Part shown: positions 17,743 to 39,366 of the stretch, one piece after another | Position numbering within the stretch: position 1 is the stretch's first letter | How the letters are laid out: each line of letters starts with the position of its first letter | Origin: Escherichia coli | GTDB taxonomy: Bacteria > Pseudomonadota > Gammaproteobacteria > Enterobacterales > Enterobacteriaceae | Assembly (NCBI RefSeq): GCF_011045215.1 | Contig: NZ_CP049201.1 | DNA: 64,000 bases | Reading direction: 5' to 3' (one strand) | The notes under the pieces: model-generated | Databases searched by the model: none | What the model was told of the DNA's origin: nothing | What the model saw: the letters and a program-made list of their open reading frames with translations, nothing else | Translations under genes and position numbers: made by a program

Positions 17743-17829
17743 GCCCGGATGGTGGAATCGGTAGACACAAGGGATTTAAAATCCCTCGGCGTTCGCGCTG
17801 TGCGGGTTCAAGTCCCGCTCCGGGTACCA
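17743..17829 (+). tRNA. leuZ: tRNA-Leu (anticodon TAA)
   Basis: GCCCGGATGGTGGAATCGGTAGACACAAGGGATTTAAAATCCC...GGGTTCAAGTCCCGCTCCGGGTACCA; long variable arm typical of tRNA-Leu; its 3' 55 nt are duplicated at 39473. Confidence 0.95.
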
Positions 17830-19435: not shown

Positions 19436-19678
19436 AGCAACCTCCCTTTAGGTGGTGCTATTCTAAATTTCATCAATGCAGATTCCAACTCCTTCCCACT
19501 TTAAGCGAAGGATGGTGATAAAGTCAGAAGATGTTAGATGAAATCTAAACGGGCGATAAGTTTTCCAATATTTGAATAACAACGTGGCAGGATTTTTGTT
19601 TATCAATTATCTTACACTTTTAAGTGTAATAAATTTGTTAGTGATGACAATATTGTGAGAGGAGATTATCAATTGAAG

Positions 19679-21077
19679 ATGGCAAAAAATAACAATGATA
19701 AAATGCGGGCAAAGTATAGGCCGTTCATAAATATATGGGAACATCTTCCTTCTGAGTTCAATGAACTCATCAAGACGTTAATGGTGCTGATACGGCAAGG
19801 GGAAAATGTGGGAGCTCAGCAAAGGGAGCTTGATTCCATCGAAAACTTCAAACACCTGTTAAGTGGATGGAAGCGGGCGCAAAGGATCATAGCTGATGAA
19901 CTCATTATCAGGCTTTCTCAAATCAAGGATCTGGAGTTAGAAAAGAATTGTGCCCATTCAAAAAAGGACTATGAAACAAAGAAGAAGTGTATACGCAATA
20001 TTGAAAGGACTAGACTAGAAATTAGGATTTTACGTAGGTGCATTGATTCAATTGTATGGGCGATATTCCGCAATGAACACTCGTCTATAAGACGTTTACC
20101 TATAAATAGAAATACTGACAATCTGACAATATTTAATATACATGATTCAATGGTGGTAGCAGATGAAATCAATGCTGATCCGATGGCTATAGCTGTTATC
20201 ACTGATATTACTACGTTTGTACATACTGGTGATTTACTTGCGTTAATACCTCAGCAAGGCATAACTTTAATTGAAATAAAAAGTGGTAAGAAAAATATAG
20301 AGTTTTCAAAGGCGGCTATGTTCTCAGTGCAAAGTAAATGTCTTCATTTTGATGAGATTTATAGAAAAGACCTTGATAAAAATGACTTGAAACACTATGA
20401 CAGAGCTAAGCGTCAACTTAAAAGAGCTCAAAATGTGATAGATGTCATTGAGACTGGTAAGGGATTTGATAACTTTTTTCAGTCTCAAGTAACAATTCAT
20501 GACAGAGATTTTTGTCCCGATTTTTATACAGATAAGATTATTGAGCTTTGGTATGAGATATATAACGGTAAAACTTGGGCGATTACTGACATTAATGATT
20601 GTTTATTCCTTGGGGCATATATTAATTCTAATATGGGTTTTTGCGGTTTTAATGGATGGATGGAGGTATCTAGAATATCGGGGAGAGTGGTTTAATATTC
20701 TTGATAGCTTTTCAGATGCTTTATCACGTCCATTTTTTAGTTTGAACCTACCTGATAAATTGCTTCTGGATATCATTAATGGCAATCTAATTGTTGTGCT
20801 GTGTTTCGATCATCGTCGTTTCGTAGAAAGAGCAAATAAAAAATACCCCGGGATTTATGAGTTATTGGATTTTCCATCTCCGAAGATTAATCCTATGAGT
20901 ATGCTTTCCATCAATGGGAAGGGGGTAGTTTCTAGTGTTGATGGACAGAGTGTTTTTATTGGAAATGGTTACGAAACTCGGATTATTTTTGATCAGCAAT
21001 ATCCAGATAGTCTGATTAAGTGGTCATACCATATGAGTGATCTCAAAAAAATATTGATAAAAAAAAGCGTAAAATGA
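19679..21077 (+). pseudogene. ~470-aa cargo protein with PD-(D/E)xK-like nuclease motif, interrupted by a frameshift near 20660-20690
   Basis: ORFs 19655..20695 and 20499..21077 overlap in different frames; protein-like sequence continues across frames around the direct repeat ggatggatgg; motif HTGDLLALIPQQGITLIEIKSGK (D ... E-x-K); AT-rich; upstream palindrome ttacacttt/taagtgtaa (19612..19629). Confidence 0.5.
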
Positions 21078-21272
21078 AAAAGGAAACGCAAAGAAAAATA
21101 AAAGAGAAAAGAAAACGTAGCAGAAAACAATGCTTAAACTAACACATCTAATGCTTTAATTTGCTTTACTGTTACAATGTCCGCTTACTGGTACAGGGCG
21201 GACTGCCATATTAGATTTGGTTCTATCTCGTAAGAGTGGCCGTTCAGGTCTGCACTAATACATCTGAATGGT

Positions 21273-27620: not shown

Positions 27621-28115
27621 ATGGCCATGATGATGATCTATGGCATGTTTGTTTTTGAGCTGCGCACACTGCCACATCAGCAGTTACAGCAAAACAAAAG
27701 CTGGCGGCATGTGAAAAATGAACGCGTTAACCGTTCAGCAAGCTGGCAGTATATCGGTGCAGGTGATGATCGCATCGTTCTTTCCGGCGTGCTTTATCCT
27801 GAAATTACAGGTGGTGAAGTGTCGCTGTCGCTGCTGACCACGCAGGCATATACAGGGCGGCCCTGGCCTCTGATTGATGGTGTCGGGCAGATTTACGGCA
27901 TGTATGTCCTGACCGGAACGAATACGACCCGCTCCGAGTTTGATCGCTACGGTAAGGCGAAAAAAATAGAATTTTCACTGACCCTTGAACGCTGTGATGA
28001 GGATTTGCGGGAGCGCCTGCAATCCTCATCGTTCAGCGATATGCTGTCCGGCTTCAAAGATAAGGTGACATCATCCCTTAACAGCGCGGCCAGTTCAGTT
28101 AAAGGACTGTTCTGA
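27621..28115 (+). CDS. tail protein (P2 gpU-like)
   Basis: 164-aa ORF directly after tape-measure gene; MMIYGMFVFELRTLPHQQLQ... P2 U-like. Confidence 0.8.
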   Translation: MAMMMIYGMFVFELRTLPHQQLQQNKSWRHVKNERVNRSASWQYIGAGDDRIVLSGVLYPEITGGEVSLSLLTTQAYTGRPWPLIDGVGQIYGMYVLTGTNTTRSEFDRYGKAKKIEFSLTLERCDEDLRERLQSSSFSDMLSGFKDKVTSSLNSAASSVKGLF

Positions 28116-28211
28116 TTTTACATTGCCGCCGATACCCTCATATTGGGTAATGGGCGGCTTGTTGTTATATAATATATCGTAGGTCCTGATAAAACTGTTG
28201 AGGTTTCTACT

Positions 28212-29450
28212 TTATAAAGAATTGCTACTTTCTAATTCTGGGTTTCTGGATCTATTTTTACAACCTAAATCCGAGTGGTAATTCGGTATATCGTTTGTCA
28301 AATCTTGTTTGATAGCATTAATTAAGATCATTATGTCGAATTTATGCATATCGTCGCCCCCTTCAGACCTTAGATGTTCGGATGTGGTGAGTTGAGTCGC
28401 TAATTTGCTGTTTGGCCCCCACACAATATTGTTTTCGAATTTTCCTTCATGCATTCTGTTATTATATATACAGTATTGTCTAATGTTTAATCCACTGGCT
28501 AAATGTACAATAGCAGTATCTACAGTTATAACAAAATCAGCATGGCGAACCAATGCAAATGAACATCCGGCATCAGAAAATGGAGATAGAGACACATTAT
28601 CCAATCCATTGTGATTAATCTGTTCTCCCATATTAAAAACTATTGTGTGATATCCCTTAAGGTTATTAAGGTAAGCTAGTACTTTGTTTATCTGTTCATC
28701 AGATAATGTTCTGCTATTCTGAGAACCATAAGGGTTAAATATAACTAATTTTTTGTTTTTCTTCCTGAATTCATTTGCAACAATATTTGCTGGTTCATAT
28801 ATTTTGTTGTCAAAATTAAGCGCTGCAGCATAATTATTATTTTTTATCTTTAGTAAAGATAAAACTTTTTTCATTCTTTCAGATGTGTGAATGGAACGAT
28901 TATCGATTATATTTGTATCAAAAATAGTTACGGCAGGATGATTAAAACAGATAGAGTGTTTAGGTCTAAGTAAATGTAGTGTTTGCAATCTGGTTATCGC
29001 TGTGTTATCAAAATTTGAGAAGTCAACAACAAGATCTACATTCAGTTTTTTTATCTTTGCTTTTAGTTCGTTAAATTTATTTTTCTCGTAAGATATAAAG
29101 GCATCCACGCCAACAATATCAGTAAAGAGGAATGATACTCTTGAAGGTGCTATCACATATACCACCATACCGGATTTTTGAAGTTGTTTAATAAACCCTG
29201 AGGTAACGATGCCGTCACCAATGGCTTGCATGTGCATGAAAATGCACACTGTTTTATAACTATCCGGCTGTAATGATGTTTTCCTTCTGTATCGCATTTT
29301 TAGAAATGCCAGTCTGGCCTTCGTCTTTATCTTTTTTGTTTTAATATTTCGCTCTCTGTTAAGCTGTTTTAATGATGAAATAACATTCATAATGGTACCC
29401 TGAAAATCCAAATCACACATGTCATCCGAAATGAGCAGGATACTATACAA
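28212..29450 (-). CDS. glycosyltransferase family 9 (LPS heptosyltransferase-like) cargo gene
   Basis: 412-aa ORF, very AT-rich; N-terminal ...MQAIGDGIVTSGFIKQL and C-terminal ...FVITVDTAIVHLASGLN resemble the GT9 motifs of WaaC/WaaF-type enzymes; start may be internal. Confidence 0.6.
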   Translation of the reverse strand: MYSILLISDDMCDLDFQGTIMNVISSLKQLNRERNIKTKKIKTKARLAFLKMRYRRKTSLQPDSYKTVCIFMHMQAIGDGIVTSGFIKQLQKSGMVVYVIAPSRVSFLFTDIVGVDAFISYEKNKFNELKAKIKKLNVDLVVDFSNFDNTAITRLQTLHLLRPKHSICFNHPAVTIFDTNIIDNRSIHTSERMKKVLSLLKIKNNNYAAALNFDNKIYEPANIVANEFRKKNKKLVIFNPYGSQNSRTLSDEQINKVLAYLNNLKGYHTIVFNMGEQINHNGLDNVSLSPFSDAGCSFALVRHADFVITVDTAIVHLASGLNIRQYCIYNNRMHEGKFENNIVWGPNSKLATQLTTSEHLRSEGGDDMHKFDIMILINAIKQDLTNDIPNYHSDLGCKNRSRNPELESSNSL

Positions 29451-29484
29451 AAAACTGGACTACAATGGTTTGAAATGAAAGCCT

Positions 29485-30084
29485 TTATGCTTGTTTACTC
29501 CTTGATTCCACTGGGGAAGCAGGCCACTCAATATCCGGTGCTCTTGATGTATCAACACGGTTCAGCAGCACTCGATACTTCTTCCATGCCACCAGTAACG
29601 ATGTTTCTTCCTCTGTTGCAATATTCAAATCTACGGCATCTTGAAGTGGCGAAATATGCTCACTGGCTACCTGCATGAGGCTGTTTTTTGTTTCTTCCGC
29701 CTCCCGTATCCGGAACACTTTTTCTGCTTCTGCATCTTTCACCCACGTTGTGCCGTTCCACTTCTGAAACTCCCCTTCCGGGGATAACCAGGTGACATTT
29801 TCCGGTAATGGACCGAGTTCAGAAATAAATAACGCGCCCCCTGATGCCACGTCATAAACCGTTTTACCACGATGATCTTCAACGAGATGCCAGGACGTCT
29901 TATCACTGTTGAAAATAGCCACGAAGCCAGCTGGAATATCTGGCGGAGAAATATCAGTACTATTTGCAGGTAGACCTGTATGAGGTGGAATGTATGCATC
30001 ACCTTCACCAATAAATTCATTGGTTCCGACCAGCAGATTATAAATTTTTATGGTTCGTGGTTGTTCACTCATTCTGAATGCCAT
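29485..30084 (-). CDS. tail fibre assembly chaperone (Tfa / P2 G-like)
   Basis: 199-aa ORF immediately downstream of the tail-fibre fragment; Tfa-like C-terminus (...[22 protein letters not shown]). Confidence 0.8.
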
Positions 30085-31259
30085 TATGCAAGCCTCACAA
30101 TATAGTTAAATGCGATGTTTTTTACGGTGTTTTCCGCGTTGCCATAAGCGGCAATGGTAATGGTGTGTGTGTGCGAACCAATAGCGAGCGTATGTGTATG
30201 CGCACCTATTGCTACTGTGTGAGTATGAGCTCCTGCGCTTAATACGCGATTACTTGCTGTCTTGCTTGTGTTAGTTGCATGCATTCCACCACCGGTACCG
30301 GGAGTTTCTGCGTATGCTGAAGTATTGTTGTAAGCAAAGTTGTGTGTATGTGCTCCGGTGTTATTTGTGGATTTAGTTCCGTAATCAAACGACGATGTGG
30401 TTTTCGTCCCCAAATCCGTACTGGATGCGCTGGCGCTGTGGGTGTGCGATTTAATGCCGTCCTGTTCCTGAGACAATACGGCTCGACCACTGGCTGGTTT
30501 GCCCTTAATCGTCCAGCCACGCATATCAGGGATCACGCCTGACGGATAAGCGGCTGCAAGTTTCGGGTATGCAGATTTGTCAAAAGTCTGCCCCTGCATC
30601 AGGGCATAACCAGACGGAACGGTATCTGATGGCCACGGGATTGGTGCGCCAGGCGGATAAAACTGCTCTGATGGCGTATAGAGTGAATAAACTGTACCGT
30701 CCGTTAACCCTTCCGGCTTATTAGCAGAATATGCTGGTGACGTATGAATCGTCACGCTGGCATTACTGGTATAATCCCATTGAATATTTACACCAGTCGC
30801 ATAATTTCCGATTGCAACGTAAATATCGTAAGTATCACCAGATGTATTGACCCAGGCAAAATTTGTAAACCCTGTCGATGTGCGCTGCCATAAAGCACCA
30901 GTAATCCCCTTCGGATTACCATTACCTGCACGCAAAACAAGTTCAGATATACCTGCCTGTTGAGGTGAACCGACGTTATATCCAGCCCCACCAATCAACG
31001 TAATTGAAACAACAGAACTCGCCTGCGGCATGGTTACCGTTGCTAATTTGAACCAACCAGCACCACCGCTAAATGACATAGTTGTTGAGTTAAGCGTACC
31101 AATATCTTTCGGTGTCAGTGTTATATCCGCTGAAAGCGCCTTACCATTCACCTTACGGGCAGAAGGTACGGTCTGGCAAGAGCCGCCCGGCAAACGTCCT
31201 GGCATCAGTCTGCGCTTTACTTTAAGCGCAATGTATTGCTCGGTTGCTACATCCCGCAC
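30084..31259 (-). pseudogene. tail fibre protein, C-terminal portion only (N-terminus deleted)
   Basis: 391-aa ORF with HTHT/His-x-His repeats ([24 protein letters not shown]) typical of fibre tips; reading frame runs into the portal fragment junction at ~31236-31259. Confidence 0.7.
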
Positions 31260-32030: not shown

Positions 32031-32560
32031 CGCGCTTCGCTTGTCTGCTGCTTCGCCGGGGCATAAAAAATTTATGCCCCGACTCTCCAGCTCCTGTATC
32101 AATCAGATAATTTCACGACGTCTTCCAGCTTATTGCCATCATCGACGGTCAGGCTCTTACGCAATCCCATCGCGCTGACTGCATGTTCTCGCCGCCTCAG
32201 TGCGATTTTGACGGCCTTATCTGCCACCCCATCAAATCAAAAGCCCTCACGTCTTTTTCACGCTCAGCGTGAGAAATACAGCCATTCTGTTGTGTTGCTG
32301 CGACATCGTTCAGGGGATGCTATTTATCCCCTGAAACGCGGGCTGTTCCCCCGTCACCTGCGCGCAGAAAAAACGCGTTTTTTTGTGCACGCACGGATCC
32401 TTGACGGATCCAGCCGCCACGGGGGCCGGAAGGGCAAAAAGTCGTTCAAAAAAATTGTGCAAATTTGTGCACTATCGTGCAGTGTGCATCGTGCTGTTTT
32501 CTGCGCAAAAAACGGATGGTAAATTTGTTCGTAGCAGGGAAATTTTAATGAGCGCAAGAC

Positions 32561-33091
32561 ATGAAGAAAGATTCATATCCTTATTTGATTTGCATGACTG
32601 TTTCAGTGCTAGGGATTATTTTCCTCTTTTACTGGTGGAGGGCAGATATCTACAGGATTACATATCTTAATTCGCGTATATCCAATTATTACATCTTGTG
32701 TAGTATGGGTATGTCCTTTTTCTTCTCCTTGTTTCTGGTGAAGAGGGGGGTAGTGAAGCAAAGTGGCTGGAAAGGACTGTCGGAATACCTGAAGGTTTAT
32801 GCTGGCTCTTGCATTCTTACAGGGATATTCCTGATTATTCCTCTTATGATGGTGACTTATTTTTTACCAGGAGTAACATCATCATATGTTGCACCGTATG
32901 AGTATACATCTGGTAGTTCAAGAAGCTGTTCCGGAGCGTTTGTTGATGATCCCGAACTGCATAAAAATATTCTTATTTGCTATCCGTATGGTAACTATGA
33001 ATATGACAATATTATCTATGTTGAAAAGAAAACTAATGCATTGGGCGTTGTTGTGACGTATGCACAGACTGCACGAGACGATGCTGAATAA
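32561..33091 (+). CDS. integral membrane protein of unknown function (hotspot cargo)
   Basis: 176 aa, about 3-4 hydrophobic helices then a soluble tail; AT-rich; preceded by TGTGCA-type repeats at 32455..32494. Confidence 0.55.
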   Translation: MKKDSYPYLICMTVSVLGIIFLFYWWRADIYRITYLNSRISNYYILCSMGMSFFFSLFLVKRGVVKQSGWKGLSEYLKVYAGSCILTGIFLIIPLMMVTYFLPGVTSSYVAPYEYTSGSSRSCSGAFVDDPELHKNILICYPYGNYEYDNIIYVEKKTNALGVVVTYAQTARDDAE

Positions 33092-33282
33092 GATACTACA
33101 GATATAGTCCACTTTTTTGTTTATTTGTCGGGATAAAAACAAATTACCCCGACTCACCATGTATTAATCTTCCGCTTTAAGTTAGTATTTTAGCTGCGCT
33201 GTCCTGCTATTCAGCAAAGCGGCGTACTTTAATGCGTCCTGTGCTTTCTGGAATTTAAGTGCATAGTCAGTGGCGATTTTTT

Positions 33283-33564
33283 CTAGTTCAGCGATTCGGT
33301 TGTTTTTGGTTTCCAGCCAATCAAGTAGCGCCAATACTTCAGGATCCCGACATCCAACACTGTTACGCGTGATTTTTCATAATGTTCGTCGGCAAGAGTT
33401 CGGCCAATTTTGAAATCTCCATCATCACCATAACCGGAGCAGGCATAAACAACCTGTGCTCCAGATATTCGCTGAATTGACATTTCCTCGCCGCAAATAG
33501 GGCATTTCGGTACTGGCACAGGTGAATAACGTTCACGTAATGCCTGATAGTTGATTTCGCTCAT
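33283..33564 (-). CDS. small zinc-ribbon protein (possibly frameshifted)
   Basis: MSEINYQALRERYSPVPVPKCPICGEEM...YACSGYGDD; an alternative frame downstream (to ~33182) reads as a coherent helical tail (DPEVLALLDWLETKNNRIAELEKIATDYALKFQKAQDALKY). Confidence 0.45.
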   Translation of the reverse strand: MSEINYQALRERYSPVPVPKCPICGEEMSIQRISGAQVVYACSGYGDDGDFKIGRTLADEHYEKSRVTVLDVGILKYWRYLIGWKPKTTESLN

Positions 33565-33627
33565 TAAGTCGTTCTCCTTGTTTATGTTCTGAGGTGGAGA
33601 GCAGGGCGAACTCGCCCTGATGTTGTG

Positions 33628-38364: not shown

Positions 38365-39366
38365 ATGTCGGTTCGTAAAACTCCATCAGGTAAATGGCTT
38401 TGCGAATGTTATCCCTACGGAGCATCGGGAAAACGCATTCGTAAACAGTTTGCGACAAAAAGTGAGGCGCTCTCTTATGAGCGCCGTTTAATGAATAGTA
38501 GAGTTGGAGACGAGTTTCAAGATGGTTCTGGTCCTCGTCTTTCTGAGTTGATTGCTCGTTGGTTTGAGATGTACGGAAAAACCTTGTCCTCTGGTGCAGA
38601 GCGCAAAGTCAAACTTGAGGCGATTTGTTCTAGGCTGGGAGATCCATTTGCTTCTCAGTTTGACAAAAATATGTTTGCTACTTATCGGGAAAGAAGGCTA
38701 TCAGGAGAATGGAATCCCAAGGGGAAGAAAAAACTTAGTGAAGCAACCGTTAATCGCGAGCAGTCATATCTACATGCTGTTTTTGCCGAACTGAAGCGCC
38801 TTGGGGAGTGGTCTGGTGAAAACCCCCTGACTGGAATTCGCAAGTTTCGTGAGGAAGAAAAGGAGCTGGCGTTTCTGTATGTAGATGAGATTGAACGCCT
38901 TTTGATTGCGTGTGATGATTCACGGAATAAAGATTTGGGGGTTGTTGTCCGTATTGGGCTTGCGACTGGTGCTCGGTGGAGTGAAGCAGAAGGATTAAAG
39001 CAATCTCAAGTACTGCCCGGTCGAATCACATTTGTTAAAACTAAAGGAAAGAAGAACCGCACTGTACCGATTTCACCTCAATTGCAGGCTATGCTTCCTA
39101 AAAAACGAGGAGCGCTATTTTCACCATGTTATGAGGCTTTTGACGCTGCAATTAAGAGAGCGAAGATAGAGCTCCCTGATGGGCAATTAACTCATGTGCT
39201 ACGTCACACGTTTGCTAGTCATTTTATGATGCGGGGCGGAAATATTCTTGTGTTGCAAAAAATACTGGGGCATAGCGATATAAAAATGACTATGCGTTAT
39301 GCGCATTTTGCTCCGGGTCATTTAGAGGCTGCTGTTGAATTAAACCCTTTTGACAATAGAGGGTAA
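38365..39366 (+). CDS. int: phage tyrosine integrase
   Basis: 333 aa; C-terminal catalytic region HVLRHTFASHFMMRGGNILVLQKILGHSDIKMTMRYAHF (R...HxxR...Y); ~110 bp from attR. Confidence 0.9.
   Translation: MSVRKTPSGKWLCECYPYGASGKRIRKQFATKSEALSYERRLMNSRVGDEFQDGSGPRLSELIARWFEMYGKTLSSGAERKVKLEAICSRLGDPFASQFDKNMFATYRERRLSGEWNPKGKKKLSEATVNREQSYLHAVFAELKRLGEWSGENPLTGIRKFREEEKELAFLYVDEIERLLIACDDSRNKDLGVVVRIGLATGARWSEAEGLKQSQVLPGRITFVKTKGKKNRTVPISPQLQAMLPKKRGALFSPCYEAFDAAIKRAKIELPDGQLTHVLRHTFASHFMMRGGNILVLQKILGHSDIKMTMRYAHFAPGHLEAAVELNPFDNRG

Follow-up and report, generated by a model that had tools for sequence, protein, structure and literature searches.

We analysed a stretch of 64,000 nucleotides of Escherichia coli DNA (contig NZ_CP049201.1 of assembly GCF_011045215.1), here called the window, in which an AT-rich gene on the minus strand lies directly behind the tail-fibre genes of a defective prophage. 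The protein encoded by this gene belongs, judged by its sequence, to the WaaU-like branch of glycosyltransferase family 9 (GT9). Our preferred reading, to which we give a probability of roughly 0.6, is that it is a lipopolysaccharide (LPS) glycosyltransferase acting in lysogenic conversion or receptor masking, carried as cargo (a 'moron') behind the fibre genes of a P88-like prophage.

The gene and its family assignment

The earlier note on this DNA had described an open reading frame (ORF) of 412 amino acids with two GT9-like motifs, low GC content and the same orientation as the tail-fibre genes. Reading of the ORF and a sliding GC calculation confirmed this description. The ORF spans positions 28212 to 29450 on the minus strand, starts with TTG and contains both motifs, QAIGDGIVTSGF and ITVDTAIVHLASGLN; the tail-fibre assembly gene (29485-30084) lies directly upstream on the same strand. 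Sliding GC values range from 0.29 to 0.36 over the glycosyltransferase gene, compared with 0.50 to 0.59 in the tail genes. The gene as a whole has a GC content of 0.33 (GC3 0.29) and the whole window of 0.49. An internal ATG at 29390 is the common N-terminus of all 30 homologue clusters in our alignment (A1). The RefSeq protein of E. coli copies that are 99% identical (WP_001100987.1, 392 amino acids, named 'glycosyltransferase family 9 protein') begins at the same codon. Since the homologue alignment and the RefSeq annotation both start here, the gene is likely to extend from 28212 to 29390, with 392 codons plus the stop, and the 60 nt between this ATG and the TTG of the ORF are intergenic. 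The entry of a WaaU-like GT9 gene at 28212-29390 (minus strand) draws on the ORF, alignment A1, the homology to WaaU and a structural model.

A hidden Markov model (HMM) scan for Glyco_transf_9 (Pfam PF01075), by which the earlier note had proposed to check the assignment, did return a match, but a marginal one. It is weak (E 1.9e-4, 21.3 bits) and covers only residues 229-332 of the 412-amino-acid translation. Precomputed matches to PF01075 were present in 19 of the 30 homologue clusters. When the family profile was compared with all PDB sequences, WaaC alone was matched (E 0.04), and the alignment falls exactly on the ...vDTGLSHLTAAL... signature. An AlphaFold2 model was built on alignment A1 and is confident, with a predicted local distance difference test (pLDDT) of 89 and a predicted template-modelling score (pTM) of 0.85. 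It consists of two Rossmann-like halves following a long N-terminal helix (residues 2-33). The best PDB matches found with Foldseek were 3tov, WaaC (2h1h, 6dfe and 2gt1) and WaaF (1psw), with template-modelling (TM) scores of 0.56-0.73. Apart from one plant NDH subunit, the top ten consist of 3tov, WaaC and WaaF, and the top matches in AFDB50 are all annotated as GT9 or LPS heptosyltransferase.

The residues of the active site were compared in an alignment with WaaU, WaaQ, WaaC and WaaF of E. coli K-12. G58-D59 correspond to G12-D13 of WaaC, D291 to D261 and H296 to H266, and these four residues are invariant across the family as well as in WaaU, WaaQ, WaaC and WaaF. The HMM alignment likewise places D291 on D261 of WaaC. 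R227 is invariant in the family and aligns with K192 of WaaC. Thus, the GD motif and the C-terminal D-T/S-x-x-x-H motif are both present, as GT9 requires. From WaaC structures, these residues are known to serve as catalytic base (D13) and in binding of ADP-heptose. Because the equivalents of the catalytic and donor-site residues of WaaC are conserved, the protein looks catalytically competent. The GT9 assignment holds because fold match, conserved WaaC residues and homology to K-12 WaaU agree, and on the predicted structure we regard the protein as a divergent GT9 enzyme of GT-B fold.

The nearest characterised relative is WaaU, and not WaaC, WaaF, WaaQ or TibC. BLASTP aligned the protein with K-12 WaaU over 334 amino acids at 23% identity (E 5e-16). 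The family profile scored 115 bits on WaaU and covered residues 14-334, the full length including the basic N-terminal helix; the scores on other K-12 waa proteins were 24 bits for WaaQ, 15 for WaaC and 9 for WaaF. A conserved N-terminal motif, NRxRNIKTKKIK, aligns with the N-terminus of WaaU and is absent from WaaC, WaaF and WaaQ. By these sequence comparisons we place the protein in the WaaU-like (HepIV) branch of GT9. WaaU (formerly RfaK, a putative ADP-heptose:LPS heptosyltransferase IV) shares with it the basic N-terminal helix before the GD motif, the GD and DTxxxH motifs and a similar length (357 amino acids against 392 for the prophage protein), and a 54% identical relative of the prophage protein closes a waaQ operon, in the place where WaaU would be expected. 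The two differ in that the identity is only about 23% and that one gene is prophage-borne and the other part of the waa locus. With the inner-core enzymes WaaC, WaaF and WaaQ the protein shares the GT-B fold and the equivalents of WaaC D13, K192, D261 and H266, but sequence similarity to them is very weak and they lack the N-terminal helix of about 45 residues. The donor assignment of WaaU comes from genetics and homology. In K-12, WaaU is described as attaching HepIV to GlcIII of the outer core, where the O-antigen is joined (PMC13293308).

Relatives, distribution and retention

A profile search of 1.84 billion representatives yielded 2954 relatives at E<=1e-3 and 108 at E<=1e-30. Named sources are Gilliamella, Orbus, E. 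fergusonii and Succinivibrio, with annotations that read GT9 or hypothetical only. Relatives of 44-57% identity were found in chromosomal waa core loci, in O-antigen clusters and in fibre-distal positions of prophages. In a Symbiopectobacterium-like genome, a waaQ-waaG-waaP-GT4-GT8-GT8 operon beside waaA-coaD ends with the 54% identical relative (P0011). The E. fergusonii relative (P0213) is part of the waa locus, flanked by waaP and a waaB-like gene, and in Gilliamella (P0199) a tandem of three GT9 genes adjoins hldE, a gene of ADP-heptose synthesis. Two relatives of 46-47% identity from a Citrobacter-like organism (P0026 and P0027) adjoin or form part of wzx/wzy polysaccharide clusters that follow udk-dcd-asmA. 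These locations in waa core loci and O-antigen clusters make LPS a more likely target than a surface protein. The earlier note had left both targets open and had called the target not inferable from sequence; the genomic contexts of the relatives narrow the choice and point to LPS.

The position of the E. fergusonii relative had also prompted a comparison with WaaS. This homology was rejected: among the K-12 waa-locus proteins searched with the family profile, WaaS scores nothing, and no similarity to the glycosyltransferase family was found. In some E. fergusonii genomes a single waa locus contains two WaaU-like GT9 genes, in the WaaS slot and in the WaaU slot (L013 14915-15988); in others the WaaU slot is taken by a GT4 gene. 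These differences point to a core type that varies within the species.

In phage contexts the gene was found directly behind fibre or fibre-assembly genes, in at least three types of myovirus prophage (P88-like, E217-like and Mu-like). The copies in prophages of Providencia stuartii and of a further Providencia sp. directly follow a tail-fibre or fibre-assembly gene in E217-like tail modules, and the P. rettgeri copy (L003) does so in a Mu-like tail module. In IMG/VR the same position was observed in 17 of 17 loci, of which about 15 represent one E. coli prophage (94-99% identity) and two (L032 and L035) are diverged (50-54%). On a contig of a Proteus/Providencia-type phage (L046), the gene follows a protein with a Gp10_C fibre-like domain. 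Two of the IMG/VR loci (L028 and L030) have an insertion of about 900 bp that separates the fibre gene from the fibre-assembly gene. The P. rettgeri prophage also encodes a GT2 glycosyltransferase of 324 amino acids (L003 11144-12118), which directly follows the GT9 homologue in convergent orientation and adjoins dinI and the integrase; the pair may form a two-enzyme LPS-modifying module.

In a neighbour-joining (NJ) tree the prophage copies are interspersed among chromosomal copies, which suggests that copies have moved between LPS loci and prophages more than once. For instance, the copy from a Mu-like prophage (P0016) clusters with O-antigen-cluster copies at 56-57% identity. Transfer of fibre tip, chaperone and glycosyltransferase as one cassette was also considered and is not supported. 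The fibre-assembly proteins of glycosyltransferase-bearing Providencia and E. coli prophages resemble one another (43-45% identity) no more than they resemble that of a sibling without the glycosyltransferase (41%). Fibre tips of 68-100% identity stand beside glycosyltransferases of 97-99% identity. Among isolated phages (50,697 phage records searched with tblastn), matches were obtained in two Campylobacter phages only, at 23% identity. These candidate homologues in the unannotated records of phages A11a (MG065691.1, 142249-143205) and A18a (MG065686.1) cover 81% of the protein (E 5e-10).

The gene is present in 48 of 5426 complete E. coli genomes, at 95-99% identity. It was found intact at three or more chromosomal sites, in prophages that have decayed in different ways. 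The leuZ-yecA site is occupied in the window and in strain STEC2018-607. At the ihfA-btuC site, in strain 165, the genes from capsid to baseplate are deleted. Decay has gone furthest at the yfhH-yfhL site of strain L6-21 (L017 19706-23191), where a fragment of the tail gene U, the intact GT9 gene, a pseudogene of the fibre-assembly gene and a fibre scrap interrupted by IS903B are left. Here the glycosyltransferase gene has outlived all neighbouring prophage genes, and the remnant is fused to another integrative element encoding DUF2800, DUF2815, Nmad5, a DNA polymerase, a TIR-domain protein and a VRR-NUC protein.

Pairwise ratios of nonsynonymous to synonymous substitution rates (dN/dS, Nei-Gojobori method) among four alleles, differing by 4-48 substitutions, were between 0.20 and 0.39, as expected of a gene under purifying selection. 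Since the frame of 1.2 kb stays open at 33% GC, is conserved at 95-99% identity and has these dN/dS values, we do not take the ORF for a chance feature. The intact gene and the low dN/dS in decayed prophages fit a function from which the host profits whether or not virions are made. Retention in such prophages speaks against modification of the fibre of the phage itself.

The host prophage and its variable slot

The prophage in the window lies between a tRNA-Leu(taa) gene (17743-17829) and the integrase gene (38365-39366) with yecA. Its T-U tail genes are 97% identical to those of phage P88 (genus Xuanwuvirus, Peduoviridae), and we classify the element (17743-39366) as a defective P88-like prophage. 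A near-complete sibling that carries the GT9 gene at the same site in strain STEC2018-607 (L019) served for comparison by blastn. Relative to this sibling, 11.2 kb from the middle of the fibre gene H to the middle of the portal gene Q are missing, with the joint at 31165-31169 (5-bp overlap). A further 4.9 kb of the replication and early region are missing at a joint around 36520/36698.

As a result of the first deletion joint, H is preserved as a C-terminal remnant on the minus strand (30084-31169, also given as 30084-31259; PHROG 295, and the blastn comparison with L019). It is followed on the same strand by the P2 G-like tail-fibre assembly gene at 29485-30084 (199 amino acids; PHROG 105, E 8e-98), the product of which is 93-97% identical to annotated fibre-assembly proteins in L001 and L019. 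Direct reading of the sequence gives a gap of 94 bp (29391-29484, minus strand) between this gene and the glycosyltransferase gene. On the other side, the tail gene U (27621-28115, plus strand; PHROG 76 and the annotation of homologous loci) is the last of the FI-FII-E-T-U block and faces the glycosyltransferase gene across a convergent intergenic region (28116-28211), also read directly. Within this region an inverted repeat, GCCGCC...GGCGGC (28125-28158), is followed by a T-rich run on the plus strand and is likely to be the terminator of the tail operon. A simple terminator scan did not flag this repeat, probably because the loop is long.

The order in which the FI-U block faces the fibre genes was also found in E. 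coli 22AR0750, in STEC2018-607 and in P88. An inversion of the block in a damaged prophage was considered and rejected, as the same order exists in intact or near-intact siblings and in P88, and the convergent order is therefore native to the lineage. Cargo in the slot between G and U varies. STEC2018-607 has the GT9 gene, P88 a DNA invertase with an alternative pair of fibre and chaperone genes (L044 7652-9800), and 22AR0750 a 'transferase' of 181 amino acids with hexapeptide repeats, acetyltransferase-like (L018 13906-14451). All three cargos plausibly concern receptors or host range, and the slot after the fibre-assembly gene seems to collect such functions.

The earlier note had placed the gene in the Z/fun hotspot of P2, between G and FI. 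In P2, the Z/fun locus sits downstream of gene G. The window resembles this arrangement in having a variable accessory slot directly after the tail-fibre assembly gene, with at least three cargos in sibling phages, and that part of the placement stands. The proposed FI flank does not, as the slot is bounded by the convergent gene U; the phage is P88-like rather than P2, and the cargo has no sequence relation to Z/fun.

Two further segments of the prophage differ from its siblings. An AT-rich stretch between the portal fragment and a ParM-like gene (32483-33600, GC 0.37-0.42) occupies the position of the P2 old/tin hotspot. It is mostly without a match in L019, and 32483-33194 have no match in L018. 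An ORF of 176 amino acids in this stretch (32561-33091) matches only PHROG 1416 (unknown function) and gave no PADLOC match; the stretch is possibly uncharacterised defence cargo. The other segment (19460-21272) is inserted between ogr and gene D and absent from L019. It carries two overlapping ORFs (19655-20695 and 20499-21077) with no match in NCBIfam, PHROG or PADLOC. Its counterpart in L018 encodes one hypothetical protein of 487 amino acids, and because the window has two overlapping ORFs in place of this single protein, the gene is probably frameshifted.

Proposed role and alternative explanations

According to our preferred reading as an LPS glycosyltransferase, the protein would be a cytoplasmic GT-B enzyme, peripheral to the inner membrane, with the basic N-terminal helix probably mediating membrane association. 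The donor would be a housekeeping nucleotide sugar, probably ADP-L-glycero-D-manno-heptose. The named GT9 relatives in our comparison have this donor assigned to them, and its pool is always present in Enterobacterales. Because hosts provide ADP-heptose ubiquitously, a single gene could suffice. The hldE gene adjoining one relative, the Gilliamella copy, is circumstantial evidence on the donor. One extra residue would be added to nascent LPS at the inner face of the inner membrane, most likely to the outer core, as for WaaU, and less likely to an O-unit. LPS is the receptor for P2-type fibres and for many other phages. The altered surface glycan could thus lead to receptor masking, superinfection exclusion or serotype conversion, and the host would gain from altered LPS even after decay of the prophage.

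Several observations weigh against this reading. Scores with the NCBIfam models for RfaQ and HepI were 19-22 bits, compared with cut-offs of 185-467. As Pfam and NCBIfam scores lie this far under the family-level cut-offs, donor specificity is not readable from homology. The phage family of the protein, PHROG 36326, is labelled 'unknown function', and our literature search found no phage-encoded GT9 enzyme or heptosyltransferase and no LPS phenotype tied to the family. Two IMG/VR copies (L031 2526-3699 and L033 6001-7174) appear to carry a frameshift, as the nucleotide match lacks 1 nt and the protein alignment is interrupted at residue 213; the cause could be genuine inactivation or an error of an old assembly. 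The gap at 29391-29484 contains the TTG of the ORF (29450-29448) and a -10-like TATAGT (29447-29442). A promoter and terminator scan of these 94 bp on the minus strand found no consensus sigma-70 promoter, no -35 element and no terminator. Alignment of the gap across genera showed no conservation, only loosely similar A/T-rich motifs of -10 type. The gene may therefore be transcribed only together with the late fibre operon, the upstream part of which is deleted in the window. Moreover, E. coli frequently silences foreign genes that are rich in AT.

These observations on transcription also bear on two other explanations. Expression could be confined to the late phase, with the gene as the final member of the tail-fibre operon. 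LPS of the infected cell would then be modified so that progeny are spared from debris and sister cells, which would not be lysogenic conversion. We consider this unlikely. The gene is indeed co-oriented with H and G at a distance of 94 bp, with no terminator-like site or consensus promoter in between, and it is placed tightly after fibre genes in every phage context that was examined. However, little of the LPS already on the surface would be exchanged for LPS made so shortly before lysis, and the gene is intact, with dN/dS below 0.4, in remnants that are unable to make virions or fibres, which points to a benefit during lysogeny. An inert passenger, horizontally acquired, silenced or inactive and not yet decayed, is slightly less probable again. 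A GC content of 33%, the failure of the gap scan to find a recognisable promoter, the small number of carriers (48 of the 5426 genomes) and the two apparently frameshifted IMG/VR copies would be in line with such a passenger. The gene is, however, intact in four independent contexts in which neighbouring structural genes have been deleted or turned into pseudogenes, its dN/dS is 0.20-0.39 and all equivalents of the catalytic and donor-binding residues of WaaC are retained.

Glycosylation of a protein, be it the tail fibre or assembly chaperone of the phage itself or a host surface protein in the manner of TibC and Aah, is in our view very unlikely. The adjacency to fibre or fibre-assembly genes is conserved across three unrelated tail modules, and TibC and Aah are distant relatives with a GT9-like fold, TibC being detectable by structure. 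But TibC ranks 27th among the PDB matches with a TMq of 0.47, compared with 0.59-0.65 for WaaC, WaaF and 3tov, and the sequence is far nearer to WaaU. Only two cysteines are near-invariant in the present family, and no autotransporter gene that could be a partner is present in the neighbourhood. Close relatives in waa and O-antigen loci have no fibre gene nearby, the glycosyltransferase remains 97-99% identical while the fibre tip varies between 68 and 100%, and its gene survives beside a truncated fibre gene or a chaperone pseudogene. Anti-phage defence without a change of receptor, for example by consuming ADP-heptose or by modifying a component of the incoming phage, has the lowest probability and is hardly credible. 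P2-type phages do carry defence cargo in variable loci, but the described hotspot is the old/tin locus by the portal gene and not the G-U slot (PMC9122126). No PADLOC family was matched at E<=0.01 and two published surveys of P2 hotspots mention no glycosyltransferase, and the identity with a catalogued defence system was rejected. Homology and context evidence all point to LPS assembly instead.

An LPS glycosyltransferase behind the fibre genes would be an uncharacterised gene of a known kind, cargo by which temperate phages alter a glycan receptor on the cell surface. To this kind belong GtrABC, Oac, NeuO of prophage CUS-3 and TarP of Staphylococcus aureus, and classical seroconversion genes of phages often adjoin tail-fibre or tailspike genes. 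The likeness to these systems lies in the position of the prophage cargo by the fibre genes and in the proposed alteration of a surface-glycan phage receptor. TarP, a teichoic-acid glycosyltransferase, is encoded on a prophage and is paralogous to a cytoplasmic envelope glycosyltransferase with a housekeeping role. In contrast to Gtr systems, no GtrA, GtrB or GtrC genes are present in the prophage of the window, and the single soluble GT-B/GT9 protein is predicted to act at the cytoplasmic face, while the core or an O-unit is assembled, rather than in the periplasm. No GT9 enzyme in a phage seroconversion role was found in the literature search.

As a tentative proposal, for which we see somewhat less than even chances, the phage-borne WaaU-like GT9 family would represent a distinct and undescribed route of lysogenic conversion. 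A single cytoplasmic enzyme fed by ADP-heptose would cap or branch the LPS outer core, possibly at or near the site of O-antigen ligation, and thereby block the adsorption of core-binding phages, kin of the prophage included. Chromosomal LPS loci would repeatedly have exchanged the gene with the slot behind the tail fibres in three or more myovirus lineages, and hosts would keep it after the death of the prophage.

If the enzyme is active, one small prophage gene would change the core or the O-antigen of LPS in about 1% of sequenced E. coli, and the carriers include clinical carbapenem-resistant and Shiga-toxin-producing strains. This would affect phage host range, and hence the design of phage therapy, as well as core typing that relies solely on waa loci, and resistance to serum or bile might also be influenced. 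A cytoplasmic GT9 enzyme would join the known tools of phage seroconversion, and the gene would illustrate how the fibre-distal slot gathers receptor-related cargo. It also offers a functional lead for a large and uncharacterised clade of WaaU-like proteins, with 2954 representative clusters at E<=1e-3.

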